A stretch of DNA of 64,000 nt, from contig JBOIBB010000014.1 in assembly GCA_050739335.1 (NCBI GenBank), positions 18,535-82,534 on the forward strand, read 5' to 3'. This document shows positions 2-52,900 of this stretch, piece after piece (position 1 is the stretch's first letter; each line of letters begins with the position of its first letter). The notes beneath the pieces are model-generated. The model was not told the DNA's origin. It did not search any database and saw only the letters and a list, made by a program, of their open reading frames with translations. This stretch comes from Gammaproteobacteria bacterium. Its GTDB lineage: Bacteria > Pseudomonadota > Gammaproteobacteria > Natronospirales > REEB76. Made by a program: the position numbers and the translations under genes.

Positions 2-2728
2 AGCAGCCTGTTCGCAACCGCTGTAGCCATTTCCAGCATCAACAATGGCCGTTTCATTCTGGTTGTGGGCGCACCTGGCGGCGATGTGCTGAATGGTAGC
101 GCGGGTGTGGTCTATCTATACCAGTGCAGCCTCAACGGCGCCCCGTCTTGCACGCAAGTATCCCGGATGGCCGATCCTGCAGCGAATCTCAACGATTTCT
201 TCGGCAAAGCGGTGGCCATTTCTTCCGACGGCAACACGGTGCTCATAGGGGCACTTGGCACAACCGAACCGGGTGGCCCGGGCGTAAACAACGTACCTGA
301 GCCGCTTGTAGGGAGTGCGTATGTTTATTCAGCGGTAAATGGCATGTGGACGCCGACGCCCGCCGTGACCGCCACACTCAATGACCCGGCTCCGACCTGC
401 GGTATGTTCGTCAGTGGTGCGGGCAATTCGTATGGATGCAATGAATTCGGCTCTGCAGTGGCTTTGTCGGGAACCGGTAGTGCACTCACGGCGCTCATCG
501 GAGCGCCAGCCGCCGTGGAAAAAAATACCGGTACATTAGAGCCGGCCGAGGGTCAGGCATTCATTTTCAGCAGCAGTGGCGGTTCGTGGTCGCTATTGCC
601 GGTCACTACGTTTATCGACCCGAACAAAGTCGCTTGCAACGTCATATCGTTCGCTGAAGATGTGTGCGATCGATTCGGTGCTTCGGTAGCGCTGTCAGCC
701 GACGGTAGTATCGCGTTGGTCGGCGCACCCGATGCCGTGCCGGCCGGTAGTAATCCACCTTATGGCGAAGCCGGTGTGGTCAATCTCTACACCCAGTCCA
801 ATGGAAGCTGGAGTGATGTCAACCTTCCGGCTGCCACCTTCTCAAATCCCGACACTCAGGTGAATTCGATATCTAACGCCAACTTTGGTTTCGGCTGGTC
901 GCTGGCGGTGTCAAATAACGGCGGCAGCATCACGGTTCTGGTTGGCAACCCGGAAGCCACCGAGGGAACGAATAATGGCGGTGACGGCTATACCGGAGAA
1001 ATGGACCTGTACACGTGCAACATCTCATCTTTGCCATCCTGCGTGAATAGCCCGGTTCAGACGTTCATAGACCCATCTCTTTTAGCGAATCCAAGTGAGA
1101 CATCACCTCCCGATTATTTCGGTACGGCCGTGGCCATGTCCAGCGGTGCCGACGTGTTGCTGGCGGGCGCGCCCAACGACGCGAATGATGGTGCGGCTTA
1201 CGTATACGGTGCGACTGCCCAGGCCGCGCCGGTCGCGACGAACGGCAATCTGATCACTGCCGAGAACAGCGTGGGCAGCGGCGTTCTGTCTGCTACTGGC
1301 ACCGGTCCGCTCACCTTCGCCATCGTGACACAGCCCACGAGTGGCACAGCGACCCTCACCAATGCCGCAACCGGTGCGTTTACCTATACGCCCAACAGCG
1401 GATTCAGCGGCACCGACAGCTTTACCTTTACCGCAAGCAACAGCGGCGGTACTTCCAACACCGCGACTGAAAGCATCACCGTGACTCCCAGTGCTTCACC
1501 GGTTGCCGAAAACGGCAGTGCCACCGGCGCTACAGGCACCGTCTTGAGCGGTACGTTGCAGGCCACCGATCCCATCACCGGACGCACGCTCACCTATATA
1601 GTGGTCGGCCAGCCGAGTGACGGCACCTTGGTCCTGACCGGCGCCAATACCGGAACCTTCACCTACACACCCACGGCCGGATTTGTCGGTACGGATAGCT
1701 TTACCTTCAAGGTAAACGACGGCTTCAGCACCTCGAATGTCGCCACCGAAACGCTCGTCGTGACTGCCATGGGTATAGGGCCGGTGGCCAACAACGGCAA
1801 TGTCAGCACCCCGGTAGCTACGCCGGTGAGCGGCACGTTATCCGCCACGGATTCGAATGCCGGTGCGACGCTGACCTTCAGTATCGTGAGCAACGTCAAT
1901 CACGGCACCGCGACGATTACGAATGCCGCCACCGGCGCCTTTACCTATACACCGTCTGCAGAGTATTTCGGTCCCGACAGCTTCACCTTTGAGGTCAAGG
2001 ACAGCACCGGCGCCACCTCGAATGTCGCGACCGAAAGCATCACCGTGACCGCGCCACTCAACGGGCCGATCGCAGTGAACGGCACGCTCACCACCAATGA
2101 AAATGTGGCGGCCAACGGTCTGCTGGTTGCCACGGATTCCAATCCAGGCGTCACACTCACCTACACGGTGATCCAACCGGCCCACGGAACCCTGACGCAG
2201 CCGGATGGGAAAAATAATGCCGCCTTCACCTACACTCCGGCCAATAATTACTCGGGACAGGATAGCTTTACGTTTTCGGTGTATGACGGCTCCGCGACTT
2301 CCAACACGGCTACCGTAACCATTACCGTAAACGCGGGTGACACCGCACCTGTCACCAAGGGTGGCGCCTACCAGACCAGCGACGACACGCCCGTGAGTGG
2401 CACGCTGAGCGCCACCAATCCGGTGTCCGGAACCTCGCTCACCTACAGCATCGTGACCGAACCTGCGCATGGCAGCGTCACCCTCACTGCGGCGACGGGC
2501 GCCTTCACCTATACCCCAGCCACCAACTACAGCGGCCAAGATAGTTTCACCTTCTCCGCGAGTAATGGGGTTTCAACCTCGAATGTTTCCACTGTCAACA
2601 TCCTGATCTTCGGCGCCACTGGTTCGCATTCCAGTGGCGGTGGTGGGTTTGCGTGGCTGGAACTGGCCGCATTCGCCGGGCTGCTGATGTTGCGCCGCCG
2701 GCGTGCACGCAAGCTGACAAGCTGGTGA
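2..2728 (+). CDS. Large secreted adhesin-like protein, 5'-truncated by the window edge. It has FG-GAP (integrin-alpha-like) repeats, five tandem ~90-aa Ig-like repeats and a GlyGly-CTERM-type tail
   Basis: The frame is open back to nt 2, and the upstream codons (..FATAVAISSINNGRFILVVGAPGG) already form an FG-GAP-like repeat, so the start at 65 is internal. FGxAVAxSxDGxxxLIGAP motifs recur. Five repeats end in FTYTPxxxFxGxDSFTFxxxDxxxxSNxATxxITV. The C-terminus is SGGGGFAWLELAAFAGLLMLRRRRARK (Gly run, hydrophobic helix, Arg cluster). Confidence 0.85.
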   Translation, partial: SSLFATAVAISSINNGRFILVVGAPGGDVLNGSAGVVYLYQCSLNGAPSCTQVSRMADPAANLNDFFGKAVAISSDGNTVLIGALGTTEPGGPGVNNVPEPLVGSAYVYSAVNGMWTPTPAVTATLNDPAPTCGMFVSGAGNSYGCNEFGSAVALSGTGSALTALIGAPAAVEKNTGTLEPAEGQAFIFSSSGGSWSLLPVTTFIDPNKVACNVISFAEDVCDRFGASVALSADGSIALVGAPDAVPAGSNPPYGEAGVVNLYTQSNGSWSDVNLPAATFSNPDTQVNSISNANFGFGWSLAVSNNGGSITVLVGNPEATEGTNNGGDGYTGEMDLYTCNISSLPSCVNSPVQTFIDPSLLANPSETSPPDYFGTAVAMSSGADVLLAGAPNDANDGAAYVYGATAQAAPVATNGNLITAENSVGSGVLSATGTGPLTFAIVTQPTSGTATLTNAATGAFTYTPNSGFSGTDSFTFTASNSGGTSNTATESITVTPSASPVAENGSATGATGTVLSGTLQATDPITGRTLTYIVVGQPSDGTLVLTGANTGTFTYTPTAGFVGTDSFTFKVNDGFSTSNVATETLVVTAMGIGPVANNGNVSTPVATPVSGTLSATDSNAGATLTFSIVSNVNHGTATITNAATGAFTYTPSAEYFGPDSFTFEVKDSTGATSNVATESITVTAPLNGPIAVNGTLTTNENVAANGLLVATDSNPGVTLTYTVIQPAHGTLTQPDGKNNAAFTYTPANNYSGQDSFTFSVYDGSATSNTATVTITVNAGDTAPVTKGGAYQTSDDTPVSGTLSATNPVSGTSLTYSIVTEPAHGSVTLTAATGAFTYTPATNYSGQDSFTFSASNGVSTSNVSTVNILIFGATGSHSSGGGGFAWLELAAFAGLLMLRRRRARKLTSW
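1226..2608 (+). repeat. Five tandem coding repeats (~270-285 nt each) inside the adhesin gene
   Basis: The protein repeats start near APVATNGN, PVAENGS, PVANNGN, PIAVNGT and APVTKGG. Antisense shadow ORFs at 1384, 1663, 1945 and 2527 all end in the same KVKLS(V/G/W)P motif, which shows DNA-level periodicity. Confidence 0.8.
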
Positions 2729-12633: not shown

Positions 12634-13974
12634 ATGAAAATCACGGTACACGGCAGTGGCTATGTGGGGCTGGTGACGGCCGCCTGTTTCGCCAGCATGG
12701 GTAACGAGGTGCTGGGGGTGGACGTCGACCGGGAACGCGTTGCGAGCCTCAATCGCGGCGAGATACCGATCGTCGAGCCGGGTCTCGACGCCCTGGTGGC
12801 CGATGGTCTCGCGAGCAAACGCCTCAAGTTCACTGACGTTCCGGCCGAGGGCGTGGAATTCGGACTCGCGCAGTTCATCGCCGTGGGCACACCACCCGAT
12901 GAAGACGGGTCCGCGGATCTGCGCCATGTGTTGCAGGTGGCGCACAGCATCGGGCAATACATGCAATCCGAGAAGATCGTGGCCGACAAGTCCACGGTTC
13001 CAGTCGGCACCGCCGACGAGGTGCGCAATACCATCGCCGGAGAACTCAACAAGCGCGGTCTGCAATTGCCCTTCGCCGTGGTGTCTAACCCGGAGTTTCT
13101 CAAGGAGGGCAGCGCTGTCGATGACTTCAATTCACCGGACCGCATCCTGGTGGGTGCCGACAGCCCGCGTGGCATCGAGGTGATGCGCACGCTGTATGCA
13201 CCGTTCACGCGCAATCACGAGCGGATCATGGTGATGGCGGTGCGGGATGCGGAATTTACCAAATACGCCGCCAATTCGATGCTCGCGGCACGCATCAGCA
13301 TGATGAACGAGTTCGCCAACATCGCCGAACACCTGGGCGTGGATATCGAACAGGTTCGCAAGGGCATCGGATCGGACAAGCGTATTGGTTATCCCTTCTT
13401 GTATCCGGGCGCGGGTTACGGCGGCTCCTGCTTTCCAAAAGATGTATCCGCGCTCGCCCGTGCCGCGACCAAGTCGGGCTGTCAGCCGGTCCTGCTACAA
13501 GCGGTCGAAGCCGTGAACCATCGCCAGAAGCAGACCTTGTTTGCAAAAATCAGCGCGCACTTCACCGGCCGGCTCCCGGGCTTGACCGTGGCGCTCTGGG
13601 GGCTCGCTTTCAAGCCGAACACCGATGACATGCGCGAGGCCCCGAGCCGGATCTTGATGGAGGCGCTGTGGAAGGCCGGCGCGCGGGTGCGGGCTTTCGA
13701 TCCGGCGGCGATGCAGATCGCGCGCCGCTTGTACCCCAACGAGCCGCTGTTGACGCTCTGCGAGTCGCCGCTGGCCTGCCTGGAGAACGCCGATGCCCTG
13801 GCGGTGGTGACGGAATGGGGGCAGTTCCGCAGCCCGAATTTTGCCGAGATGCGGCATCGCCTGAAGCACGCAGTGATCTTCGACGGCCGTAACCTTTATA
13901 ATCCGGCGAGCATGCGAAGCGCCGGATTCACTTATTATTCTGTCGGCCGGCCGGTCGTGCGCAATCAGGACTGA
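12634..13974 (+). CDS. ugd: UDP-glucose 6-dehydrogenase
   Basis: It has an N-terminal Rossmann motif (HGSGYVGLV) and the catalytic Cys motif [11 protein letters not shown]. The length is 446 aa. Confidence 0.9.
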
Positions 13975-16223
13975 CTTGTTTCGGACCGTTGGCGGCGCAG
14001 GCGCGCCGCCTCAAGCAGCAGCAGCACCGCCAGAAGCGCCAGGCCGAATCCGCCACCACCCGATTTACCACTGGTCACCGTGAGGCTCACAGATGCAGTG
14101 GCGGTTACGCCAAAGGCATTGGTGCAGGTAAGAGTCACGCTGTACTGACCGCCCGAGGTGTAGCTCACCGAGGGGTTTGGGGTACTCGCACCCGGGATTC
14201 CGGAGCTGGCACCGAAATTCCAGTCGTAAGTCATCCCACCGGGGGCACCGTTGGCTGCACACGTGCCGGTAAAGTTGAGCGTGTTGTTGGGACTGACCGC
14301 AACGTTGTTGGCGGGGCTCAGGATGCTCGCGCTGGGCGCCGGGTATTGCGCTGCCGCCGAACGCACGGCGTTCGGCAGGCCGTAGCCGTACACCCCGTTC
14401 GGACTGCCGTTGCCGAGTTCCATGGCTCCAGCCTTGAGCATGGCGTAGGGGTCGACGCTTGGGAAGCCGGATTCAAACAGCGCAATCAGGCCCGCGATGT
14501 GCGGTGCCGCCGCCGAGGTTCCGCAGAACGGCTCGCTGAAATTGCCGGCGCCCGTGGTCGTGACGCAGTCCACTCCTACAATATCCGGCTTCATGCGGGT
14601 GCTGGGACCGGACGCGGGTTGAAACAAAAATACCGGGCCTTGGGAACTGTAGGGCTCGATTTGATAGTTGGGGTTATTCAGTGCGGACACCGCCCCGACC
14701 GTGATTTCCGCGGGGTAGGGCAAGGCGGATTGTCCGTAGATACTGCCCGCGGGCGTGACGGGACTGAGCAGGATTTGGGAATTCGTAGTGCTCGCCAGAA
14801 TCTTGAGATGGGTATCGGGGCTGCCGTCCGCAGCGGCGTAGAGAATTTCCAGGTACACGGTAGCCGCGCTGGAACCCGTGTTATCCCAAGAGTTGCCCTG
14901 AATCGGTTGTGGCCCGGGCGTGTTGGTTGGGCCAGCGGTGCCACTAAAGGGACAGCTGGCGGGCGAGGGAGGCGCAGCGACGCCACCGAAATTGCTGCCG
15001 ATGTTGCAAACCAGCACGTTGCCATTGGCACCCGTCAAAACGACGTCGTAATCGTTCGGGTCGTTGGGCGTGCTGCTGGTTACCGTATTACTTGGCACCC
15101 AGGTGTCGCCCCATTCGACGACCCAGTTGAGGGTGTCTCCGGGCTGTACGGTCATGGTCAACGAAGTAAGCGGCGATTCGGAGGTGCCAAAATTCTGCAG
15201 CGACGCGTAGGTGATGCCGTTGATCGTCACCGGTTTGCCGTTGTTGACCACGGAGTTCGGCAATGCCAAAGGATTCCAGCTGCCCGCCCAGAAGCCTTCG
15301 GCATCGTTCCCAGCGGCTGTCAGCAGACGCACGGCCGGATTGGCACTCGAAAAGCTTGCCACCGCGCTGGCGAAGCTGCCGTCCGTGAACATCGCGACTC
15401 CGGCAAAACCAAGATCGTCCACGATCACCAAATTTATATTGCCGAAATGGTTGGCGAAATCGCTGAGGCAAGTGACAAAGTCCACGGTGGTTTGCGGGCC
15501 GCAGAAGCCTAATTGCACGCCCGGCGCGAGGTCGTAGACGATCTCCATCATGGCGGTGCCTTCATCTCCAGCGCTCTTGAAACTGCCCGCATCATTGGGA
15601 TCGTTCCAGATCACGGACGGGAGATCTCCCGAAGCTTGCGATGTGGCGATTTGGTCGTCGCCGTCGGAGATGACGCCGACCGCGACACCCTTGCCCGTGT
15701 AGCCGGTGAGTTGACGGTATTGCGCGGCCCCCAGTATCTGATCGCCCGCGGTATCCACACTTCCGGTGCGCGGCGAGGGGGGAGCTGGCGGCTGCCGCTT
15801 GACCAGCGCGTAGCGAGGCACCGTGATCCGCGTGACATTTTGCAGTGCGGCCGCTGCGGGTAACTTCCCGGCCGGAATCCATGCCTGAACCACATCCAGG
15901 CCGCGGCTGACGATCACGTCGGTGGCGCCCAGGGCCGTCAAGGCGGCGGCGTCCGGAGTACCGCCGTATCTATTGAAGTGCAGATAAACCTGGACCGCGC
16001 CGCTCGCATTCCAGCGTGGGCTCAGCGGTGCCGCACGCCGGAACAGTTGCTGGGTCAGAGATCGCGCCATGACGGATTGCGTTTGGTGGTGTGCCGCAAG
16101 CTCCGCAACCATCGCGAGCCTCGCGCTCAGTTTGCCGGTTGCTCCCGGCAGGTTCGCTGCGGCCATGACCGGGACAGTGGTGACGGCAAGCAGCGAGCCC
16201 AGCAATACGCCGGTGAGCTTCAT
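13965..16223 (-). CDS. Secreted clan-SB (subtilase/sedolisin-like) serine peptidase with an N-terminal propeptide, a PKD domain and a GlyGly-CTERM-type tail
   Basis: There is a signal peptide. The Asp block is [14 protein letters not shown], the Asn block [11 protein letters not shown] and the Ser block [21 protein letters not shown]-like segment contains YDWNFG. The tail is [30 protein letters not shown]. Confidence 0.85.
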
Positions 16224-16234
16224 AGGTTGTGAAC

Positions 16235-16651
16235 TCAGCGCGGGATGGCGTACTGCGGCGGTGTGACGCGCGTCACGAAGGGCAGTGCCGCTATGACCAT
16301 GAGATTATTGGGCCGGATCCAGCCCTGGACGATGCGCAGCGCGGGGCTCGCGAGCATATTCTGCAGGCCGTTCGCGCCGAGCATCTTGAGATGCTCGGCG
16401 GAAGTATCGGTCACATGCACATACACCTGGATGTTGCCGGCGGCATCGCTGCGTACCAGCCCGGTCAAGGGTGCCTGTGCGGCACCGCTTTCGAGCTCTT
16501 CGGCGGCACGTTGCAGCCGCGGTGCGATCTTTGCACGCGCCTCCGCTGAGCCCACCGATGCGGTAGCCATCGGCGGTGTGCAACCCAAGCCGGCCAACAT
16601 CAGTACTGCGGCTCCAAAAACCATGCGCGACGAGCGGAGGATCTTCTGCAC
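16235..16651 (-). CDS. Stand-alone secreted paralogue of the protease propeptide domain
   Basis: It has a signal-like N-terminus. Residues ~40-138 align by eye with protease residues ~30-135 ([24 protein letters not shown]; [18 protein letters not shown]; [67 protein letters not shown]). It stops 11 nt before the protease start. Confidence 0.7.
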   Translation of the reverse strand: MQKILRSSRMVFGAAVLMLAGLGCTPPMATASVGSAEARAKIAPRLQRAAEELESGAAQAPLTGLVRSDAAGNIQVYVHVTDTSAEHLKMLGANGLQNMLASPALRIVQGWIRPNNLMVIAALPFVTRVTPPQYAIPR

Positions 16652-16735
16652 AGCGCGTACCCCAAGTCAGGATTGGATGTGGATTATTTTACCGTGGGGT
16701 CAGCCCGTAACGGCACAGTCCCGGCTGCGTGCCGT

Positions 16736-18478
16736 TCAGTCAGCGGAATCGCTGGTGCCCGCAGGCAATGCGGACGTGCCCGGTGCGTCCGGCAACGGCT
16801 GCTGCAGGGCTGCGGCGAGCGGCTGCAAGTGCCGGCGGTAATGCTGCCAACGGCCTACGGAACTGTGGTAAACGGGTTTCCTCACTTGGGTGGCGCTGGC
16901 CGTAGCCACCGCCCGGCGCACCGACTGGAACTCGAGGCAGGCTGGATCAAAAGGCAGCCCGCAATGCGCGAGCACCCGGCGCAACTGGATTTCCGGCGCG
17001 GCCACCATGGATTCGTAATCGACGTCGAGGCTGCGTCCGGCGGGCAGAACCCGTTGCCAGTGTTCCATCATCTCCTCATACAAGCGGTAGCGCTCGCCAA
17101 GATCCCGCAGGTCGTAGGTGAAATCCAGGCGTGAGGAAAACAGGTGCTCGTAACAGCTCAGGCAGGTATCGAACGGATTGCGGCGCGTATGGATGATGGT
17201 CGCCTTGGGGAACATTAGCTGGATCATCCCCAGCATCTGATAGTTTCCAGGCATCTTGTCGGTGAAGCGCGCGTGCACGCGGCGCAGCGACTCCGTGAGA
17301 CGGGCATACTCTGCGCAGGCGCGCTCGAGATCGGCAATCACTTCGGTATCGCTGCCGGGCGACGCGCGTCCGCGTGCGCCCCAGGTGTCACCCACGGCTT
17401 GGCAAATATCCGGCAGATAGGCAAGCTCGCCCCCGGCCTGCACCTTGGGGTGGGCGGCGAGCATCTGCTCCACCAGCGTCGAGCCCGAGCGCGGCATTCC
17501 CACGATGAAAATCGGTTGCAAGTCACAATGGATCTTGTCCTTGAAGCGCTCAAACAGGGCGGGCACAAAGAAGGCTTTCAGGCGCCGCACGCGTTCGATT
17601 GAGTCGGCCGGATCATAAGCCAGTGCACTGTGTTTCAGTGCATTGGCGGCCTGCAAATACCCGAAGGCACGGTCGTAGTCGCCGCGTTGCGCGCACACGA
17701 TGGCCAATGCGAATCCCGCATCGATGCGACCTTCCGCAGTGACGCCCGAGCCCTCGGCCGCACGTTGTTCGAGCATGCTGAGCTGCTGGTCATCCACCTC
17801 ACCGAGGCTCGCAAGCTGGTAGTAGCCCGCGATCGTTGGATCCAGCATGAGCGCCGCCCGGCAGGCCGTGTACGCCTTGTCGGTCTTTCCGAGCATGGCG
17901 AGCGCCACGCTCGCGTTGAAATAGGCCGGCGCGTAATTCGGGTCGATGCGTCGCGCCATATCGAGCATCACGAGAGCGTCTTGCTGCCTCCCGTGCTTGA
18001 TCCAGATGCTCGCGAGGCGTGCGGACGGCCCGGCATCTTGCGGGTGACGTTGCATCGCCGCACGCAAAACTTCCTCGGCCTGTTGCAACTTGCCGGTTTC
18101 GGCAAGCTCCTGGGCAAAATCCATGGCATGCATGGCACGTGCAGGGTCGGCGCGCATCGCCCACCGAAAGGCCTCACTGGCGCGCGCGTGCTGACGCAAG
18201 TTACGCATGGCCTGGCCCGCGCCGTTCCAGCTCATGGCCTCGTTGGACTTGTCGGGCGCCTGCCTTACCGCCTGGTGAAACTGTTCAATGGCATCCTCGT
18301 TGCGGTTTTCGGCAAGGGCGATAGTGCCGGCGAGATGCAGCAACTGATAATCCCGCGGGCGGTCTTGCAGCAACGCATCCACGGCTTGACGCGCAGCCGC
18401 GATGTCGCCGGCGTCGACTTGGCGCACGATCGCCTGCACGTCGGCGGGTATTGCCATGGCTGCTTGCGTTTCGCTCAT
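16736..18478 (-). CDS. TPR-repeat sulfotransferase family protein (paralogue 1)
   Basis: The N-terminal half is TPR repeats. The 5'-PSB-like loop is FIVGMPRSGSTLVEQML and the 3'-PB-like motif is HTRRNPFDTCLSCY. The start overlaps the upstream stop (ATGA). Confidence 0.8.
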   Translation of the reverse strand: MSETQAAMAIPADVQAIVRQVDAGDIAAARQAVDALLQDRPRDYQLLHLAGTIALAENRNEDAIEQFHQAVRQAPDKSNEAMSWNGAGQAMRNLRQHARASEAFRWAMRADPARAMHAMDFAQELAETGKLQQAEEVLRAAMQRHPQDAGPSARLASIWIKHGRQQDALVMLDMARRIDPNYAPAYFNASVALAMLGKTDKAYTACRAALMLDPTIAGYYQLASLGEVDDQQLSMLEQRAAEGSGVTAEGRIDAGFALAIVCAQRGDYDRAFGYLQAANALKHSALAYDPADSIERVRRLKAFFVPALFERFKDKIHCDLQPIFIVGMPRSGSTLVEQMLAAHPKVQAGGELAYLPDICQAVGDTWGARGRASPGSDTEVIADLERACAEYARLTESLRRVHARFTDKMPGNYQMLGMIQLMFPKATIIHTRRNPFDTCLSCYEHLFSSRLDFTYDLRDLGERYRLYEEMMEHWQRVLPAGRSLDVDYESMVAAPEIQLRRVLAHCGLPFDPACLEFQSVRRAVATASATQVRKPVYHSSVGRWQHYRRHLQPLAAALQQPLPDAPGTSALPAGTSDSAD

Positions 18479-18951
18479 TGCGACGACCCGGTTTCCGCCG
18501 CAGTCCCTGGCTTCGGAAGCTGCGCCGCCAGATGCTGCTCAGCGAGCTTGCGCAGCTCGGCGGCGAGCGCCGGCAGTATGCGGAAGCCCGGGATCGAACT
18601 GGGATTGATTGCGATGCCGGCGTCTTTGGGCACGCCGAGCAGCGCCCAGCGGGCATCGACCTCGACCGGGTAGTGAAACAAGGTGTCGCCGCGGGGTATG
18701 GCTTCGATCTTGTCCGCGCTCGTGAACAAGGCCAGCATCGCCTGGGCCTGGTTCTCGCCGTCGCTCACCAGCAACACGTGGGTTTCCGTGCTGGGCAGTG
18801 AGCGTCCGTCCCATGGCGTGTCGAGTACCACGAATACCCGGGAGTTAAACAGCATCTCGAGAATCTTGCGATGGCTTTCGAGCTTGTTCTCCGCCTTGAA
18901 CAGTGCGGCCTCAAGCTCCTGGGGAGTGACGCTAGGTGCTACGGCTGGCAT
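18475..18951 (-). CDS. SseB-family-like protein
   Basis: The pattern LFNSRVFVVLD...HVLLVSDGENQAQAMLALFTSADKIE...INPSS resembles the SseB N-terminal domain. This recognition is from memory only. Confidence 0.55.
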   Translation of the reverse strand: MPAVAPSVTPQELEAALFKAENKLESHRKILEMLFNSRVFVVLDTPWDGRSLPSTETHVLLVSDGENQAQAMLALFTSADKIEAIPRGDTLFHYPVEVDARWALLGVPKDAGIAINPSSIPGFRILPALAAELRKLAEQHLAAQLPKPGTAAETGSSQ

Positions 18952-18997
18952 GGATGTCCGCCTGGTTGTAGGAGAGGATAGCAGGGCGGTACCGCGC

Positions 18998-20791
18998 TCA
19001 CGCAGCCCCTTCTAGGGCCGTCAGCAGCGGTGCCAAAAACGGTTTGTAGTGCTTCCAGCGCCCCACGGATGAATGATAAACCGGTTGGCGCACCTGATAC
19101 ACACTGGCCGTACGCACCGGCCGCTGGCTGCCGGTGAAATCCAGGCAGGCTGGAGACCATTCGAGCCGGCAATGCGCGAGGATGCGTCGCACCTGGGTTT
19201 CAGTATCTGCGACCATATCCTCGTAACTCACATTGAGGAGCGTGCCCACGGGCAGTACCTTGTGCCAGTACTGCATGAGTGCGTGGTATTCGCAATAGTA
19301 TTCGCCGAGTTCCTTCAGGTCCGAGGTATAGCCGAAATCCGAATCCAGCAGCGTGGTATACAGCGATACGCAATTGTCACGCGGATCGCGATAACAATGC
19401 AGGATCCTGGCTTGCGGGTAAAGCACGTGGATGAGCCCGAGACGCAAGAAGTTTCCCGGCATCTTGTCGGTGATGTGCGCGACGCCCGGGGCCAGGGCCT
19501 GCATGTCCGCCAGGCTGCGCAGACCGATGCGGCGCAACTGCGCGTCGTCGAGACCCGCCACCGAGTTTTCGGGTTCCTCGTTGTAAGCGGCACCCAGGGT
19601 GCGGCTCAAAGCTGCAAGCAGCAGCTTGAGCTCGCCGCCGGCATGTACCTCGGGGTGCCGTGAGAGGATCTGTTCAACCAACGAGGTACCCGAGCGTGCC
19701 ATGCCCACGATAAAGATAGGCACGCTGGACTCCAGCCCGCAACGCGCTGCGCGCTGCAAAAATTCCGGGCTGTTGGCCGCACGAATACGCTGAAACTTTT
19801 CATGATTCAATGCACTCGAGTAGCTCAGCGTGGTGCGCCGCAGCGCATGCCCGGCTGCGTAATGCTGGAAAGCCCGCGCATAGTCGTGCGCGTTTTGCCA
19901 GGATTTGCCGAGCGCAAACTCAATGTTGAGCTTGGCGCCAACATCTTCACGCTCGCGGCTCTCATGCCGTGCTTCGAGCTTCTTCTGCAGCTCTCCGCCG
20001 GCCGGCAATCTCCCCATGGTGCTGAGGCGCAGATAGGCCTCGGTGTAATCGTCATCGAGGGCAAGTACGGTTTCGAGTTCGCGTTGTGCATCGGCGAACT
20101 GCCCCAACGACATGCACAAGTTAGCACGTTGAAAATGCGCGGCGGCTGAACGCGGGGCCGCGGCAATGGTCGCGTCCAGGAGTCGGCCGGCTTCGGCATA
20201 GCGGTCTACCAGCAGCAACAGAGTCGCAAGCCGCACTTGGGTTTCCGTATCCTGCGGGGCGATTTTTAACGCATGCCGGGCGGCGGACACGGCCTCGGCC
20301 ATCATTCCCATGTTCTCCTGAATGATGCTGAGCGTCATCCAGCATCCCCGGTGCCCGGAATGTTTCCCCAAGGCCTCCAGCAGAACGGACACGGCATCTA
20401 CGGGCCTCTGCATTAGCGACAGCGCCATCGCCAGCCCCTGGCAGGCATCGGCGTTGCCGGGTTCAAGCTCGAGGCAGTGGTGGTACTGATCAATCGCCTC
20501 GGCCCCAAGCTCGCTACTCAACAATGCACTCGCCAGGTTGTGAGCAAAACCAGCGTTGCGCGGCGCGAGCTGCACGGAACGACGCATTTTTTCCAGGCCC
20601 GATTGGCTGCGGCCGGTCTGGAACTCGAGGAGGCCAAGAAAATGCAGGGCGTCGGGTTGCGCAGGCTCCCGCCGCAGCACCTCGTTGAACAAGGGTTCGG
20701 CGCGGGTAAAGCGTCCGCGCTGTTGTTCGGAGATCGCTCGACCAATCAGCTCGACGATCGGAGTAGAGGTAGGCATCGGCATCTGGGACAT
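18998..20791 (-). CDS. TPR-repeat sulfotransferase family protein (paralogue 2)
   Basis: TPR repeats are followed by FIVGMARSGTSLVEQIL and HCYRDPRDNCVSLY. I chose the start at ATG 20791 (MSQMPMP..); a GTG at 20875 is an alternative. Confidence 0.8.
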   Translation of the reverse strand: MSQMPMPTSTPIVELIGRAISEQQRGRFTRAEPLFNEVLRREPAQPDALHFLGLLEFQTGRSQSGLEKMRRSVQLAPRNAGFAHNLASALLSSELGAEAIDQYHHCLELEPGNADACQGLAMALSLMQRPVDAVSVLLEALGKHSGHRGCWMTLSIIQENMGMMAEAVSAARHALKIAPQDTETQVRLATLLLLVDRYAEAGRLLDATIAAAPRSAAAHFQRANLCMSLGQFADAQRELETVLALDDDYTEAYLRLSTMGRLPAGGELQKKLEARHESREREDVGAKLNIEFALGKSWQNAHDYARAFQHYAAGHALRRTTLSYSSALNHEKFQRIRAANSPEFLQRAARCGLESSVPIFIVGMARSGTSLVEQILSRHPEVHAGGELKLLLAALSRTLGAAYNEEPENSVAGLDDAQLRRIGLRSLADMQALAPGVAHITDKMPGNFLRLGLIHVLYPQARILHCYRDPRDNCVSLYTTLLDSDFGYTSDLKELGEYYCEYHALMQYWHKVLPVGTLLNVSYEDMVADTETQVRRILAHCRLEWSPACLDFTGSQRPVRTASVYQVRQPVYHSSVGRWKHYKPFLAPLLTALEGAA

Positions 20792-21138
20792 TAGCGATAT
20801 GTGCTCAATCCATCCGCCCGGCGCAGTGCACTTGGGGCCTCCGGGGCATTCTGTAGGTCGGGTTCCCGACGTCACTGGTATTATTCAATGCGCGATTGAT
20901 GTTCATATTATTAACATGTGCAGCTTCAGGTTGGAAGTGCGGCGATTAGCGAGGTGTTCGTGTGAAAGCGCACCTCATGAAGGGATTAACCTCTTGGCGT
21001 TCTTGCCGGCACTCGGCTCGCAGAAAAGATATGGTTGGCCGGGTATACGCCGCTCGCTAAGGCTTGGTGAGCTGGAAATTACTCGGTGCAACAGTTTCTC
21101 GCTTGCTTGGCGGGAAGCCTGCACGGCACGACTGCGAG

Positions 21139-22890
21139 CTAAAGCGAATAGCCGAAGCGCTTTACCCATGGGTGCAGCGTGTCCAGGCTTGCGCCGAAGT
21201 ATTCGCGGTAGCGCTGCCAGCGGTCCACGGCCCGCGCATTGACCGGTTGCACGATTTGGGCATAACTCGGGGTGTACACGCGCGCTCGCGCACCTGGCGG
21301 TCTTTCGCGATCAGGTCTCGACGCGGCAGCGTCGAGCCCGAGAAATGCACAGGCAGCACTCAACTCACGATTCGGGTCGATCACCAGGCGCTCGTAACGC
21401 AGCTCGTACACATCAAGCTCAAGGATCTCGCGGTAGCGCAGCCAGAGCTCCATCACGCGCCGGTAGATCTGCGTCGAAGACTCCAGATCCAGGAAGTTTC
21501 CCGTGATGGAACTGCCGTTGAAGGATTGCATGAAGCAGGAGAGCACCACGTCGCAAGGGTGACGCAATGCGAAAACGAAAGCGGCAGCGGGCAACAGGGC
21601 GTGCACATATCCGGCTTGGGCCGACATCAGCGGATGCTTGTCGAGTATCAACGCCGGCGCGGCGGTGGTTCCGAGGCATGCATGTACGGCCTGCCAATAA
21701 TCGCTACGCAGCGTCTGCCAAGCTGCAGGCGCTAACCCGGCGAGTGCGGCCGGATAAGCAGGTTGCGCGGCGCGCAGCCGGTTCAGGGTGTTTTCCAGAC
21801 AGGGCTCTTCCTCGAGCACCGCCAATCCACGGCGCGTACCGAGGAGCGTATCCATGAGCGTGGTGCCGGCACGCAAAAAGCCCACCAGGAACGCGACGGG
21901 TGGCTCGTTCATGGCACGTTGCGCCGCGCGGGTCTTGGCGATCCAGGTCTTTACCCAGTCGGCCGTGAACAGCTCCAATAGACTGTCGAGTTCATGCAAA
22001 TAAGCACGTGCCGTGTCTGCCAGCCAGGGTTGAGCCTCCAGCGAAAGATGATTGGCCTCATCGAAACAGCGGTACGCGGCCGGTGTGTCGCCGAGGGTGT
22101 CGTAGTTGTAGCCCAACTCGAACAGCATGTCGCGGCGGGTACCGGCCGGTAGCTCGGGGCGCGACAGTATCGGCTCCAGCCGCCCGACAGCCGCCGCCGA
22201 ATCGCCCTGGCGGCGCAGAAGCTTGGCTACGGTGGCGTTCAAGGCCGGGTGGGCGGGCGCGAGAGTCAGGCCCGCATCCGCCGCTGCGGCGGCTTCCTCG
22301 GTCCGGTTGGCCTGCTCCAGCAGCACCGCAAGGTTCGACCAGACCGCGGGATTGCGCGCATCCAGGGCGAGCGACTGGCGATAGGCCTCGATTGCCGCGT
22401 CGGCCTTGCGCTGCTTGTCGAGAGCAATCCCCAAGTTGTTGTAGATGTGGGCGTCGCGCGGACTGCGGCTGAGCGCCTTGCGGTAACACTCGACGGCGGC
22501 GTCGACCTTGCCGAGCTCTTTGCAGCATATTCCGAGATTGTTGAGGAGCCCGCTGTCACCGGGGTAGGTGCGCAACGCCCGGTCAAAACACGGCGCGGCT
22601 TCGGCCCAATGCTCAAGCTGCATCTGTGCGTTGCCGAGTGCGCGCTGGATGTCGGGATTGCGGTCATCCAGATGCGCGGCACGGTCGAGGTAGGTAAGCG
22701 CTTCCTCTGGACGATTATCATCGAGCGCTGCACCGCCCACGAGATACAGCGCACCGGCATGTGCACCGTATTGCTGTAATAAATTTTGCGCGAGCTGCAC
22801 CGCGGCCGGATGGTCACCCGCTTGGTAGGCTTGCACCGCTCGTGCGAACAGGTCTGCAGCCGTCGCCGCGCTCTGGCTCGAATTACTCAT
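21139..22890 (-). CDS. TPR-repeat sulfotransferase family protein (paralogue 3, more divergent)
   Basis: TPR repeats are followed by FLVGFLRAGTTLMDTLL and ALRHPCDVVLSCF, with a C-terminal DRWQRYREYF like the other two paralogues. Confidence 0.75.
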   Translation of the reverse strand: MSNSSQSAATAADLFARAVQAYQAGDHPAAVQLAQNLLQQYGAHAGALYLVGGAALDDNRPEEALTYLDRAAHLDDRNPDIQRALGNAQMQLEHWAEAAPCFDRALRTYPGDSGLLNNLGICCKELGKVDAAVECYRKALSRSPRDAHIYNNLGIALDKQRKADAAIEAYRQSLALDARNPAVWSNLAVLLEQANRTEEAAAAADAGLTLAPAHPALNATVAKLLRRQGDSAAAVGRLEPILSRPELPAGTRRDMLFELGYNYDTLGDTPAAYRCFDEANHLSLEAQPWLADTARAYLHELDSLLELFTADWVKTWIAKTRAAQRAMNEPPVAFLVGFLRAGTTLMDTLLGTRRGLAVLEEEPCLENTLNRLRAAQPAYPAALAGLAPAAWQTLRSDYWQAVHACLGTTAAPALILDKHPLMSAQAGYVHALLPAAAFVFALRHPCDVVLSCFMQSFNGSSITGNFLDLESSTQIYRRVMELWLRYREILELDVYELRYERLVIDPNRELSAACAFLGLDAAASRPDRERPPGARARVYTPSYAQIVQPVNARAVDRWQRYREYFGASLDTLHPWVKRFGYSL

Positions 22891-22937
22891 GACGCCTGCT
22901 ACGCCGGCGGCCGCCCGGACGCAGCGTTGACGACCCT

Positions 22938-24278
22938 TCAGGCGCCGTGGCCGCTCGGAGTTCCACGATTGATTGCCGCCAGTGCTGCCACCAGCGCGGT
23001 CACGCCGTCACATTCCGCGGCGCTCAGCAACGGATTCCAGATCTCCGTGATCAGCACCACACGGCGTTCCTGGCTGCGATTCCAGGCTTCGTGCTGAAAG
23101 CTGTCGTCAAAAATCAAACATTGTCCGGCGGACCAGCCCCGGGTCTCGTGACCAACACGGATAGCGCAGTCTTGCGGAACGACCAGCGGCAGGTGCACCA
23201 CAAGCTTGTAGTTGCCGAGCCCGTAATGGGACGGAATGTGCGTGCCCGGCCGGAGAATGGAAAAGAATGCCTCCGGTGTGTGCCCGGGAATTTGTGGCAG
23301 CGGGAGCTGGCCGAGCGCTTGCATGGTGGCGGGGCAACGCGCGGCATTGTCATTCTGTATCTTCCCGCCGCGCAGCAGATGAAACGAGTTCCATTGCGAC
23401 GAGTGGTTAAGCTCGCGCCACTGCTGTGGGTCCGTGCGTACATCAATGTCGACGTAGGGCTCGAGGCCGGCCTCGCTGGCCAACACCGCTTCGGCCTCGG
23501 CGAGTATCGCCGCGGTACAAGCTTCAAGCGCAGGTGCCCAAGCGAACTGGGTGCGTTCGAAAAAAGGACGCGGTTCGATGCCGGGCACGTACAAATACGC
23601 TGGGCGCTGCAAGGCATGGGCATAGCCGGGCGCGCCCGGTCCGCCGGCCAGCAGGCTGGCGGCGGCCTGGATGTTCACCAGCGCAGCGTCGCCATGCCGC
23701 TGCGTGACGGGCTCCAAGTGTTGTGCGGTTATCGCGTTTATGTGCTCGCGCACAAAGTCTACCGCGTGCGTAAGCATTTCGCGGATTGGCGCCGGCGTGG
23801 ATGAATCGCGCAGAGTCTCGGCGGCGGGCGGTTGCATGCAAGCCAGCGCCTGACGGTAGCTGGCGAGTGCTTCGGGCTCGCGCCCGAGCTTGTCCAGCAG
23901 TGCGCCCTGGTGCAGTAGCGCGACCACATAGCCGGGCTGCAGTGCAATGGCACGATTGAAGGCTTCGAGCGCCTGCTCCGCGAGCCCTTGGGCGCGATAC
24001 ACGATGCCGAGATTCTGGTAGAGCATCGCGCGCTTCGGATCCACCTGCACGGCACGTTTCAGGAGCTCCTGGCTTTGCGCAGCATCGCCACGCTCGAAGG
24101 CGCGCATCGCGAGAAACATGAGCGCCTGCAGGTGATAGGGCGCCGCATCCAGCAGCTTGCGATAGATCGTTTCAGCCGCGGTTTTGTCACCCCGGTGGGC
24201 AAGAGCCGTGGCACTGTCCGCGAGCATCGCGATCTGATTTGCGGCCTCGGGAGTGGAGTTGGGCATTGAAAATCGCAC
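22938..24278 (-). CDS. TPR-repeat aspartyl/asparaginyl beta-hydroxylase family (2OG/Fe(II) oxygenase) protein
   Basis: An N-terminal TPR region is followed by a C-terminal segment, ILRPGTHIPSHYGLGNYKLVVHLPLVVP...CLIFDDSFQHEAWNRS, typical of the AspH/LpxO-type Asp_Arg_Hydrox domain. Confidence 0.8.
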   Translation of the reverse strand: MRFSMPNSTPEAANQIAMLADSATALAHRGDKTAAETIYRKLLDAAPYHLQALMFLAMRAFERGDAAQSQELLKRAVQVDPKRAMLYQNLGIVYRAQGLAEQALEAFNRAIALQPGYVVALLHQGALLDKLGREPEALASYRQALACMQPPAAETLRDSSTPAPIREMLTHAVDFVREHINAITAQHLEPVTQRHGDAALVNIQAAASLLAGGPGAPGYAHALQRPAYLYVPGIEPRPFFERTQFAWAPALEACTAAILAEAEAVLASEAGLEPYVDIDVRTDPQQWRELNHSSQWNSFHLLRGGKIQNDNAARCPATMQALGQLPLPQIPGHTPEAFFSILRPGTHIPSHYGLGNYKLVVHLPLVVPQDCAIRVGHETRGWSAGQCLIFDDSFQHEAWNRSQERRVVLITEIWNPLLSAAECDGVTALVAALAAINRGTPSGHGA

Positions 24279-49836: not shown

Positions 49837-49917
49837 CGCAGGTGTGCGATGTGTCCGCCGCGGTGGCGGCACTGGCATCAACAGGGAGTTGCAGTTTGGA
49901 GTTGCAATCCTAGTCCT

Positions 49918-52900
49918 ATGTATCTCTCGGTCCTCGGATCGCATGCCAGGATACACGGTACCGTCGAGGTGCCGAACTCCAAATACCATGCCCACCGTGC
50001 GTTGATCCTCGCCTCACTCGCCGACGGCGTGAGCCGCATCACCGGCCTCACCGACGCCCGTCATGTGCAATACACGATTCGCGTGCTGCGCACGCTTGGC
50101 ATTGACATCGAAATACGCCACGACACCTTCGTGGTGCACGGCGGCCGGTATCGCCCGCGCCGCAGCAGTGTCTCGGCAGGCAGCTCCGGCACCACTTTGT
50201 ATTTCATGCTGGGCCTCGCGGCACTCGCCGAAACCGACGTGATCGTGACGGGGCAGAAGTATTTCCAGCGCCGCCCGGTCGGCCCGTTGCTCGCGGCACT
50301 GCGGCAGATGGGCGTCGGGGTGAGCTCGGGCACGGACTGCCCGCCGTTCGCGGTGAAAGCCCGGCGGCCGCTCGGCGGCGAAGTGCACATCCCGGGAACC
50401 TTGTCACAGTGGATCTCGGGGCTGATCTTGCTCGCGCCGTTCGCCACGCACGCGACCACGGTTATCGTGGATGGCCCGTTCAACGAGCGCAATTACGTGG
50501 CGCTGACGGTGCGCATGATGCGCAGCTTCGGCCTCGAGGTCACCGCCAGCGCCGATGGCCGGCGCTACACGATTGCACCGGATCAGCGTGCGCATCCCGC
50601 GGACCTCGTGATCCCTCCGGACATCGGCTCGGCGGCATTCGGTGTGGCCGCCGCGGCCATGCATCCTGCGGATGTGCTGTTGCATGGTTTGCGTTGCGCG
50701 CGCGCCGCCGAGGTCGACCATCCGGAAGCCGGCTTCCTCGACATTGCCGCGGCCATGGGTCTGCCGATGCAGGTCGATGCGCGCGCCGGCGGTCTGCGCA
50801 TCGTGCACTCGGGCGTGCGGCTCAAGCCGGTGACCGTCGACTGCCGCGATCTGCCGGATATGCTGCCGGTGCTCTCCGGCATGGCGTGTTTCGCCGACGG
50901 CGAAACGGTATTCACCAACGTCGAACACGTGCGGCTCAAGGAATCCGACCGCGTAACCTCGATGCTGCAACTGAACAGCATGGGCGGCGACGTCGACTTC
51001 GACGGTTCGAGTCTGCGCGTACGTGGAGTGCACGCATTGCACGGGGCGGACCTCTCGAGCTTCAACGACCACCGCGTACTCATGTCGCTTGCGGTAACCG
51101 CTTCGGCCGCTGAAGGCCGCAGCACCTTGACCTATCCGAATGCCTACCGGATTTCCTATCCGCGCTTTCTCGAAGCCATGCATACCTTCGGACTCGACAT
51201 GCAGGTGGAGAAACAGCGACTCGCGGCGCACAGCGGCAAACCCAGCCGTCCGCTCATCGAGGACCAAGAGGCGGTGGAACGTGCGGCCGGGGTAACCGGC
51301 GAGGCCTGGGTACGGCGCTGGGCGAAAGAAAAACCCGACGAAGTCGCGGTCGCGGAGGCGCGGCCCGAGACCACGAGGTATATGACCTGGGCCGAACTCG
51401 ATGCGCGTGCCGACCGGGTGGCGGCGCTGCTGCTCACGCTCGGCGTCGGCGCCAAAGACCGGGTCGCGATCCAGCTCCCCAACTGGTCGGAGTTCGTCGC
51501 CATTACGGTGGGCGCGATGCGCATCGGTGCGGTCGTCTGCCCCATCATGCCGATTTTCCGTGAACGTGAAGTCGCGTTTGCGCTGTTCCGTTCGCGCGCG
51601 AAGATCTTCATCTTGCCCGAAGAGTTCCGCGGCCGACGCCATGCCGAGGAGGCCGCCGGGGCACTGGCCAAAACCCAGTCGGGAGGCAGCCGTCACCTTG
51701 GCCTCACCGACGTGTGTGTGATCGGCAACCGGCGCGCCAGTCAATCCTTGGCCGCCAGCACCGCGGTGCGCTGGCATGACTGGGACGCCGAGCTCGAAGC
51801 GGTGTCGGTCGATCGTTCCGCCATCGACGCGCGCCGCCCGCGGGCTGAAGGTCCAGCGCAGCTGCTGTTCACTTCCGGCACTTCGGGGGAGCCGAAGGGC
51901 GTTATCCACACACATGCGACACTCTCACGGGCGGCCGCGATGGAAGTACGGCACCTGGGGCTCGGCCAACACGAAGTGATCTACGTGCCTTCGCCGCTTG
52001 CCCATCAGACGGGATTTCTCTACGGCATGTGGCTCGCCTTTACGCTCGGTGCACCACAACTGTTGCAGCCGGTATGGGACGCGGAGCGTGCGCTCAACGT
52101 GCTGCGCGGCTGGAAAGGCACGTTCGTGCAGGCCGCCACCCCGTTTCTCACGGATCTGGTGAAGGCGGTCGAGGCGGGCGCCGCACCCGCGCCCAGCCTG
52201 CGCATTTTCGTCGCCACCGGCGCGGCTGTACCACGCACGCTCGCGGAACGCGCAACCCGCGTGCTCGGCACCGCCGTTTGTGGTGCGTTCGGAACCACCG
52301 AGACCTGTCTCGGCGCCCTGGCCGCACCCGGCGACGCGCCGGTCAAGGTTTGGGGCACCGATGGGCGCGCGCTTGCGGGTGTCGAACTGCGGATCGTGGA
52401 CGAGCACGGCAAACGCCTGGCGCCCGGCGCCGAGGGTAACCTCGAGCTCAAAAGCGGCACGATGTTTGCGGGCTACCTCGATCGTCCGGACCTGACGCCG
52501 GCGGCCTTCACGGCCGACGGCTGGTACCGCACCGGCGATCTCGCCACCCTCGACGAAGAAGGTTTTCTGCGCATTACCGGCCGGGTGCGCGATGTCATCA
52601 ACCGCGGTGGCGAGAAAATCCCGGTAGCGGAAATCGAGGAGCTCTTGTATCGTCATCCGGACATCGAAGACGTAGCGGTCGTTGCCATGCCGGACGCGCG
52701 TCTGGGCGAGCGCGGCTGTGCCTTCGTGGTGTCCCGCAAGAGTAGTGCACTCACGTTTGCCGGCATGCAGCAATACCTCGATGCGCACCACGTATCGAAA
52801 CACTACTGGCCGGAACGTCTCGAACTGATCGACGTGATCCCGCGCAACGCCGTCGGCAAGATCCAGAAATTCGTGCTACGCGAACGCGCCAAGAATCTCG

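Follow-up and report, generated by a model that had tools for sequence, protein, structure and literature searches.

What do bacterial modifying enzymes act on when each carries its own tetratricopeptide repeat (TPR) array, the gene of a putative chaperone is lodged among theirs and a secreted protease follows? The question is raised by a gene cluster in a 64,000-nucleotide stretch of contig JBOIBB010000014.1 from the metagenome-assembled genome of an uncultured soil gammaproteobacterium (the whole stretch is called the window below), which a first-pass annotation had described as one Asp β-hydroxylase, three sulfotransferases and an SseB-like protein feeding into a protease module. Judged from sequence comparison, the cluster at positions 16736-24278 is a trimmed form of a gene island that is shared within one lineage of soil Gammaproteobacteria not yet cultured. 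The island is uncharacterised and the window copy is not unique; it is a derived, receptor-less version. As to what the enzymes modify, we regard it as about evenly balanced whether they act on an extended polypeptide, by Asp/Asn hydroxylation and O-sulfation.

The seven consecutive minus-strand open reading frames (ORFs) lie exactly where they had been placed. In order of transcription, with the intervening spacer and with domains assigned by Pfam, they are:

22938..24278, minus strand: TPR-AspH, an Asp/Asn β-hydroxylase-type 2-oxoglutarate (2OG) oxygenase with an N-terminal TPR array (PF05118, 1.5e-43, and TPR)
21139..22890, minus strand: TPR-sulfotransferase 3 (ST3, group ST-C; Sulfotransfer_3, 3.9e-25, and TPR)
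20792..21138, no strand: AT-richer spacer of 347 bp, recognised by GC content, where sister contigs have a divergent receptor gene
18998..20791, minus strand: TPR-sulfotransferase 2 (ST2, group ST-A; Sulfotransfer_3, 3.2e-41, and TPR; the listed ORF reaches 20875)
18475..18951, minus strand: SseB-like small protein (PF07179, 4.2e-7)
16736..18478, minus strand: TPR-sulfotransferase 1 (ST1, group ST-B; Sulfotransfer_3, 2.4e-47, and TPR)
16235..16651, minus strand: lipoprotein-like stand-alone prodomain paralogue of 138 aa, without a Pfam match, resembling the N-terminal region of the protease
13965..16223, minus strand: secreted S8-family protease with prodomain, PKD domain and C-terminal tail (Peptidase_S8, 9.9e-10; PKD, 1e-9)

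The spacings of 47, 46, 84 and 11 nt and the ATGA overlap between the SseB-like stop and the ST1 start are exact, and N-terminal TPR arrays were found by Pfam on all four modifying enzymes, as had been claimed. The gap at 20.8-21.1 kb is indeed AT-richer (GC 0.53-0.55, and 0.43 in its core, compared with 0.63 in the cluster), but its size needs revision: both the relatives' homologues in BLASTP alignments and the window sequence itself favour the ATG at 20791 (MSQMPMP...) as the start of ST2, which makes the gap before ST2 347 nt rather than 263 nt. Since relatives have a divergently transcribed receptor gene at this position, the seven genes probably form at least two transcription units. A scan for sigma-70 promoters and terminators gave no guidance here, with 0 promoters and fewer terminator-like sites than in shuffled sequences, none of them in the intergenic gaps of the cluster. 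All five enzyme and chaperone proteins, read from their sequences, are without an N-terminal signal sequence, which places TPR-AspH, ST1-3 and the SseB-like protein in the cytoplasm, where 3'-phosphoadenosine 5'-phosphosulfate (PAPS), Fe(II) and 2OG are available. Housekeeping genes flank the cluster, with acnA, an hflD-like gene, mnmA, purB and fumC on one side and ugd and a resistance-nodulation-division (RND) pump on the other.

To place the cluster among its relatives, we compared neighbourhoods centred on TPR-AspH (±10 kb) and a later set centred on the SseB gene, cited here by their L and P handles. The full island, found among relatives that are 44-59% identical, lies on one contig (ERZ27257070 k141_1027987, represented by L002 and L087), in the following order and orientation:

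sucAB-lpd <, Sel1-2OG oxygenase <, TPR-AspH >, sulfotransferase-like protein of 234 aa >, small AspH <, AspH-sulfotransferase fusion >
TPR-ST(C) >, TIGR02466-like oxygenase >, TonB-dependent receptor <, TPR-ST >, TPR-ST(A) >
SseB >, TPR-ST(B) >, Cupin_8 <, prodomain-like protein of 135 aa >, S8-PKD protease >, ugd <, AhpC >, RND pump >

Among the 13 loci of at least 15 kb with at least 44% AspH identity, a TonB-dependent receptor lies within 10 kb of TPR-AspH in every case (13/13), a small 2OG oxygenase in 12, and sulfotransferases, a TIGR02466-like (Syn9-gp52-like) oxygenase and a Sel1-oxygenase in 11 each; the relatives also carry extra sulfotransferases and a JmjC/Cupin_8 gene. The block formed by ST-A, SseB and ST-B recurs in L004, L021, L037, L087, L088, L102-L104 and L107. 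The neighbourhood comparison thus bears out the co-conservation of the AspH, sulfotransferase and SseB-like genes, whose orthologues stand together in many related loci.

How the window copy came to differ is best seen in two sister contigs (L107 and L108, ST1 68% identical), whose DNA is colinear with that of the window on either side and which read acnA >, ST-C >, receptor <, ST-A >, SseB >, ST-B >, prodomain-like >, S8-PKD. In L107 a receptor of 1042 aa sits at the exact position of the 347-bp gap, and the sulfotransferase block stands beside acnA with no TPR-AspH between acnA and ST-C. L107 lacks the hydroxylase and the window lacks the receptor, so each of the two is dispensable in cis; L107 shows an independent but similar reduction, and by gene order the sulfotransferase/SseB block is the stable core of this sub-lineage. 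The seven genes are a co-directional set, as had been proposed, and are co-conserved, but hydroxylase and sulfotransferases are separable. The reduced window copy has been maintained, with every ORF intact and the catalytic residues kept. Neither a TonB-dependent receptor nor a TIGR02466-type oxygenase occurs anywhere in the 64-kb window, and the other additional 2OG oxygenases of the relatives are missing from it too; a blastx comparison of the 347-bp gap with every island protein revealed no remnants of lost genes, and Rfam gave nothing relevant in the window (E≤1) or in six relatives (gathering threshold). Typing of the relatives' receptor with NCBIfam and the PDB yielded plug-domain similarity only (BtuB, CirA, PfeA), from which its ligand cannot be inferred.

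The receptor region of the relatives has features of its own. In L004 (18656-19030), the stretch that separates the divergent receptor and first sulfotransferase genes contains a conserved TAGCACAG box together with a palindrome of 18 bp, TGTTGY-N6-RCAACA, as do the corresponding stretches of L014, L019, L021, L026, L027, L034, L037, L040 and L042; box and palindrome look like a putative operator of a regulator and have no Rfam counterpart, and the palindrome has no match in the 347-bp gap of the window. L026 carries group II intron domains between the TIGR02466-like oxygenase and the receptor (14596-14862, minus strand; RF02001, 107 bits; RF01998, 38.5 bits). Another non-coding element is conserved in the intergenic region between the sucA leader and the Sel1-oxygenase (L006 7319-7541, L010, L014, L018, L021, L023, L028 and L042); it surfaced as spurious small-ORF families on both strands and has no Rfam match in the two loci scanned, L021 and L026.

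We then asked what each protein resembles. TPR-AspH scores 148.8 bits against PF05118 (gathering cut-off 22.6), matches human ASPH with a phmmer E value of 1e-26, and gave an AlphaFold2 (AF2) model (pLDDT 89.7) whose ten best PDB matches in Foldseek are all human ASPH oxygenase plus TPR constructs (E 1e-19, ~466 aligned columns). In the catalytic-domain alignment, human H679, H725 and R735 are matched by H351 (followed by Y-G), H396 and R406, which we take to be the iron-binding His pair and the Arg that holds the 2OG C5-carboxylate, a numbering that agrees with PDB variant names; the three residues are invariant or almost so across 26 homologues, and the iron site consists of two His without the carboxylate ligand of an HxD/E motif. 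With human ASPH (PDB 5JQY, 6YYY) the protein shares a TPR array N-terminal to the PF05118 double-stranded β-helix, the model aligning over both, as well as the two-His site, the 2OG Arg and the near-identical motifs GTHIPxH and IFDDSF(Q/E)HE(A/V)W. It differs in being cytoplasmic, with neither membrane anchor nor endoplasmic reticulum lumen context, in an overall identity of only ~20%, in the orientation of its domains (root-mean-square deviation (rmsd) ~19 Å over both), in having Val at the position of human R688, and in having no evident EGF-like, Cys-rich substrate in its vicinity; the island contains no recognisable EGF-like protein. From its PF05118 domain, its two-His/Arg site and its modelled two-domain build, TPR-AspH is predicted to be an ASPH-type enzyme. 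The family is large: 1653 of the scored candidates are homologues at E≤1e-10, the 120 of them that were listed all have the ~440-aa architecture, and at least 577 genomic loci encode a relative.

The three sulfotransferases are only 23-36% identical to one another, and BLASTP assigns each to a distinct positional orthologue in the relatives. ST3 (group C) is 49% identical over its full length to the protein at L002 14614-16338, has orthologues in 10 loci, and corresponds to the sulfotransferase next after TPR-AspH; ST2 (group A) is 38-42% identical to the receptor-proximal sulfotransferases of L023, L011, L014 and L042; ST1 (group B) is 40-42% identical to group B enzymes, which always directly follow the SseB-like gene. 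All three keep the 5'-phosphosulfate-binding (5'-PSB) motif, the catalytic Glu, the Lys and the 3'-phosphate-binding (3'-PB) motif: ST1 has GMPRSGST, GGE, DKMP and RRNPFD..S, ST3 has LRAGTT, EEE, DKHP and RHPCD..S, and ST2, like ST3, is equivalent to ST1. The solved sequences nearest to the ST1 domain are tick tyrosylprotein sulfotransferase (TPST), TPST1 and TPST2 (E 4e-11 to 2e-9), followed by polyketide sulfotransferase domains. The AF2 model of ST1 (pLDDT 89.2) agrees, with TPST1 (5wrj) as its best sulfotransferase fold (template-modelling (TM) score 0.73, rmsd 3.5 Å) and TPST1, TPST2 and tick TPST ahead of the OLS and CurM domains; no carbohydrate sulfotransferase or cytosolic SULT is among the top 50 fold matches. 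In motifs and, for the modelled protein, closest fold, ST1-3 thus resemble TPSTs, and Tyr is a candidate acceptor. They share with human TPST1/2, tick TPST and Xanthomonas RaxST the PAPS-dependent PF13469 fold and the PRSG(S/T), catalytic Glu, Lys and R..D..S residues, and with RaxST a cytoplasmic location (PMC6637879). They differ in being fused to 7-8 TPR repeats and in occurring as three to five paralogues per island, whereas RaxST homologues are about as long as RaxST itself and TPR repeats go unmentioned for them (PMC6637879). TPR-fused sulfotransferases are common in annotation (1432 proteins at E≤1e-20 among the scored candidates, one of them named from Bradyrhizobium). The top whole-chain fold matches of ST1 also include O-GlcNAc transferase (OGT) and SPINDLY (SPY), which modify many proteins. 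Here the analogy is one of working principle, a long TPR superhelix N-terminal to a nucleotide-donor transferase; the catalytic domains are unrelated (glycosyltransferase versus P-loop sulfotransferase), and we claim no membership.

The SseB-like protein matches PF07179 with 30.6 bits (gathering cut-off 21) over 119 of the 124 model positions and belongs to a subfamily of 61 homologue clusters, all ~150 aa and from the same lineage; its profile had no match among PDB sequences. In L042, L099, L100, P0222 and P0224 it forms a single fusion protein with the ST-B orthologue. The SseB domain has been predicted to be a Tic22-like peptide-binding chaperone (PMC9503650), and we regard the window protein as a predicted, candidate peptide-binding chaperone or adaptor. 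That it might itself be a sulfation substrate was considered and rejected: its core is globular and strongly conserved, it has no invariant Tyr, and it behaves as an accessory protein.

With gene content, orthology, conservation, fold and active-site conservation established, it is tempting to speculate on how the parts would work together. A polypeptide substrate is suggested by the TPR arrays on the four enzymes, the sometimes-fused SseB chaperone, the human-ASPH architecture, the TPST-likeness of the sulfotransferases and the Sel1 and JmjC-type oxygenases of the relatives; the ASPH-like two-domain fold, the TPST-like fold and motifs and the SseB-sulfotransferase fusions also favour the earlier proposal that the enzymes are directed at proteins or peptides rather than small molecules. 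The TPR arrays of human ASPH and OGT recruit polypeptide to the catalytic domain. By the same principle, the TPR superhelix on each island enzyme would dock an extended polypeptide at its catalytic domain, and the SseB/Tic22-like chaperone, translationally coupled to ST1, would hold or deliver the unfolded substrate. The ASPH-type Fe(II)/2OG enzyme would then hydroxylate Asp or Asn of this polypeptide, and the three PAPS-dependent TPST-fold enzymes would O-sulfate Tyr or other hydroxyls, so that one or a few polypeptides would be modified in the cytoplasm, probably before export. L107, where TPR-AspH is missing in cis, indicates that sulfation probably does not strictly require hydroxylation by this enzyme. 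Candidate substrates, all speculative, are the prodomain lipoprotein/S8 protease pair, the receptor of the relatives or an unlinked protein.

Several observations weigh against a polypeptide target. Blastp clustering of 1430 intergenic ORFs (12-90 aa, 45 loci) turned up no precursor peptide family, its only DNA-level conserved elements being those upstream of sucA and of the receptor, the window and the gene lists of the inspected loci show no peptidase-containing ABC exporter like that of raxX-raxSTAB, and no ABC or C39 gene lies in the island. The island therefore differs from a raxX-raxSTAB-type cluster for a sulfated ribosomally synthesised and post-translationally modified peptide (RiPP) in having neither an adjacent precursor peptide nor a peptidase-ABC exporter. 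Proteins exported by Sec are rarely modified in the cytoplasm, and the receptor found in 13/13 relatives fits a small-molecule product at least as well. PF13469 includes non-protein sulfotransferases too, and at E≤0.01 the ST1 domain matches no solved chains by sequence other than TPSTs and two sulfotransferase domains of polyketide synthesis; TPST-likeness is accordingly weak evidence, and may partly reflect which members of the family have solved structures. Finally, the lipid hydroxylase OlsC is what NCBIfam ranks first for the hydroxylase domain, though well short of the cut-off (8.5e-31; 107 bits against 450).

Does the adjacent protease point to the substrate? The 138-aa protein shares 38% identity with residues 70-140 of the protease across 71 aa (E 3e-8), has a lipobox-like Cys, ends at the conserved P-x-Y-A..PR junction, and is kept upstream of the protease in L087, L096, L100, L101 and L107; judged by this similarity, it is most simply read as a candidate inhibitor or chaperone of the protease. 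An early impression that the protease pair is unique to the window was discarded as an artefact of the 10-kb flank length, since the SseB-centred loci show the protease in relatives. The adjacency of the protease to the sulfotransferase block is conserved: in 10/10 informative loci with an SseB gene, which span 44-70% SseB identity, ST-B has an S8-family protease after it. Orthologues of the window type (48-69% identical) occupy this place in L087, L096, L100, L101 (two copies), L102 and L107, and another S8 subtype, with a Fervidolysin-type prodomain, occupies it in L088, L093 and L104; that two types which cannot be aligned with each other take the same position hints that a protease is functionally needed there. 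The pair runs in the direction of the enzymes in both the window and L107, with gaps of only 84-168 nt, and in L105 a close ST1 homologue in another context is also beside a receptor and a peptidase.

However, ugd, AhpC, PadR and the RND pump follow in the same downstream order in the same loci and are as syntenic as the protease, so that its adjacency to the enzymes is possibly lineage synteny, and the notion of seven genes acting as one obvious unit that feeds into the protease is not supported. On this alternative the pair would be functionally unlinked to the enzymes and the substrate would be encoded elsewhere, a reading we neither favour nor disfavour. L036, which has no SseB gene, has MlaA/MlaC after the sulfotransferases instead; an opposite-strand Cupin_8 or small 2OG oxygenase gene often intervenes between ST-B and the protease; and the invariant Tyr at the prodomain junction would be explained, by analogy with subtilisin biology, by the specificity of protease autoprocessing. 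We consider the linkage positional only, and it is unlikely that the protease pair is the substrate of the enzymes.

The theme of receptor, peptidase, sulfotransferase and oxygenase recurs outside the island, in L105 and L106 (Logan SRR16630550 and SRR32051229), where a TPR-sulfotransferase 71% identical to ST1 lies between two TonB-dependent receptors, with a 2OG oxygenase, another TPR-sulfotransferase and an S9/tricorn-like peptidase beside it.

The protease shows further peculiarities. Its tail had been called a GlyGly-CTERM sorting signal; a tail of a Gly run, a hydrophobic stretch and an Arg-rich end (13965-14070, minus strand) is kept in all seven orthologues, but sorting models support the assignment weakly (MYXO-CTERM 16.7 bits, below the cut-off of 20; rhombotarget lipoprotein tail E 0.024), and no rhombosortase family turned up among the Pfam matches of the scanned window ORFs. 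A partial FG-GAP/Big_9/cadherin-like adhesin of 908 aa at the window start (2-2725, plus strand), one of the substrates suggested earlier, is separated by 11 kb from the gene of the protease and by 14 kb from that of the closest sulfotransferase. It ends in SGGGGFAWLELAAFAGLLMLRRRR, a tail of the same class, which suggests one C-terminal sorting system for both proteins. At residues ~220-235, the position of the subtilase His motif HGT(H)VAG, all seven orthologues have EGTAMMEI(V/I)YD(L/I)APG; the Asp of D-(S/T)-G is not invariant (ISAGD in L100), and the Pfam S8 model matched in the C-terminal half only. By its motifs, the protease may use a sedolisin-like Ser-Glu-Asp arrangement. The seven also share PNDPNDYD(V/I) with an invariant Tyr392; flanked by Asp on both sides, this residue could represent a tyrosine-sulfation context, or equally a structural or calcium-binding site.

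A further alternative sees the enzymes as tailoring, by hydroxylation and sulfation, a small secreted metabolite that may derive from a peptide and could be siderophore-like or a signal; the relatives would import it through their TonB-dependent receptor, and the window would have lost the receptor. The constant company of receptor (13/13), TIGR02466/Syn9-gp52-like oxygenase (11/13) and small 2OG oxygenases (12/13) in the long loci speaks for it, as do sets of receptor, sulfotransferase and TPR-AspH in Permianibacter, Silanimonas and other Gammaproteobacteria and of receptor and TPR-AspH in Sphingomonas; siderophore-like products were predicted for receptor/2OG-oxygenase/sulfotransferase neighbourhoods in the searched passages of Iyer et al. 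2010 (PMC2938197). Against this, the island in the inspected loci has no nonribosomal peptide synthetase (NRPS), no NRPS-independent siderophore (NIS) synthetase, no precursor peptide and no dedicated exporter, TPR or Sel1 repeats on nearly every enzyme together with a peptide chaperone are atypical for such tailoring, the Fur-box consensus (≤3 mismatches) has 0 matches in the window, and the receptor is missing from all 64 kb while the enzymes are intact. We consider a metabolite target rather unlikely.

That the enzymes modify envelope glycans or lipids (lipopolysaccharide, capsule, ornithine lipid, lipid A), with ugd supplying UDP-glucuronate for the same structure, is very unlikely: ugd does lie convergent just past the protease in the window, L087, L088, L093, L101, L102 and L104, and, besides OlsC, the hydroxylase domain matches LpxO (1.8e-12) and the sulfotransferase domains weakly match the Nod factor carbohydrate sulfotransferase NoeE (8e-8), but the scores fall far under the NCBIfam equivalog cut-offs (107 against 450 bits for OlsC, 46.9 against 500 for LpxO, and 31.4, 28.9 and 19.4 against 500 for NoeE), so that membership is reached neither by TPR-AspH nor by ST1-3, glycosyltransferase, polysaccharide export and lipid A genes are absent from the island in every locus, TPR-AspH has no membrane segments whereas LpxO has them, the whole-protein fold match, TPR domain included, is human ASPH, and carbohydrate sulfotransferases are missing from the top 50 fold matches. 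OlsC and LpxO, the only bacterial PF05118 enzymes that NCBIfam names among the matches here, share the Pfam family of TPR-AspH, and the sub-cut-off scores, TPR fusion and human-ASPH-like motifs favour another subfamily for it.

How new is the combination? The first-pass annotation knew of no assigned function for a joint hydroxylation and triple-sulfotransferase module. To call such a combination undescribed would be too strong, since Iyer, Abhiman, de Souza Burroughs & Aravind predicted operons of β-hydroxylases and sulfotransferases in 2010 (PMC2938197); the searched passages of their paper describe receptor-linked 2OG-oxygenase/sulfotransferase neighbourhoods and predict hydroxylation followed by sulfation. 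Those neighbourhoods, as far as these passages go, have in common with the island a β-hydroxylase-family oxygenase and sulfotransferases; the relatives, not the window, further share the Syn9-gp52/TIGR02466-like oxygenase, JmjC/Cupin_8 and the TonB-dependent receptor. The window copy has neither the receptor nor the TIGR02466 oxygenase that mark the published neighbourhoods, and the relatives do have the receptor. Conversely, the tryptophan halogenase, SapC, PhyH-methyltransferase, PAPS synthetase, collagen-like and tail-collar genes described there are absent from the Pfam and gene lists of our inspected loci, and TPR/Sel1 fusions, an SseB chaperone and an S8 neighbour were not found in the searched passages. 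In the literature searched, that paper was the only one relevant to TPR-sulfotransferase/receptor systems, and we found neither a TPR-rich island with an SseB chaperone, three TPST-like orthology classes and an S8 neighbour nor experimental work on TPR-sulfotransferases.

Elsewhere in the window and unrelated to the island, a fusion of 5-enolpyruvylshikimate-3-phosphate (EPSP) synthase and an AMP-binding (adenylating) domain, 1029 aa and unusual in architecture (49849-52938, plus strand), is followed by genes for an acyl-CoA dehydrogenase, a short-chain dehydrogenase/reductase (SDR) and an old yellow enzyme (OYE)/pyridine-nucleotide reductase.

To our knowledge, bacterial protein sulfation is experimentally documented essentially only for RaxST/RaxX. 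The island offers a compact conserved test case, with a human-ASPH-like enzyme, three intact TPST-like paralogues and a dedicated putative chaperone, and its natural variants without the receptor (the window) or without the hydroxylase (L107) are available for comparison, which makes the question of what TPR-sulfotransferases target directly approachable. Should the substrate be a glycan or a metabolite, the value of the island would lie chiefly in annotation. The most far-reaching version of a polypeptide target, which we hold to be improbable, is a TPR-guided, OGT-like machine in which the chaperone would pass unfolded pre-proteins (the lipoprotein and protease, or the relatives' receptor) to three to five TPST-like sulfotransferases and several hydroxylases, leaving sulfotyrosine or sulfated hydroxy-Asp/Asn on surface proteins; if true, bacteria would have in it their first system for protein sulfation by several enzymes, and one that is widespread among the Gammaproteobacteria of soil.

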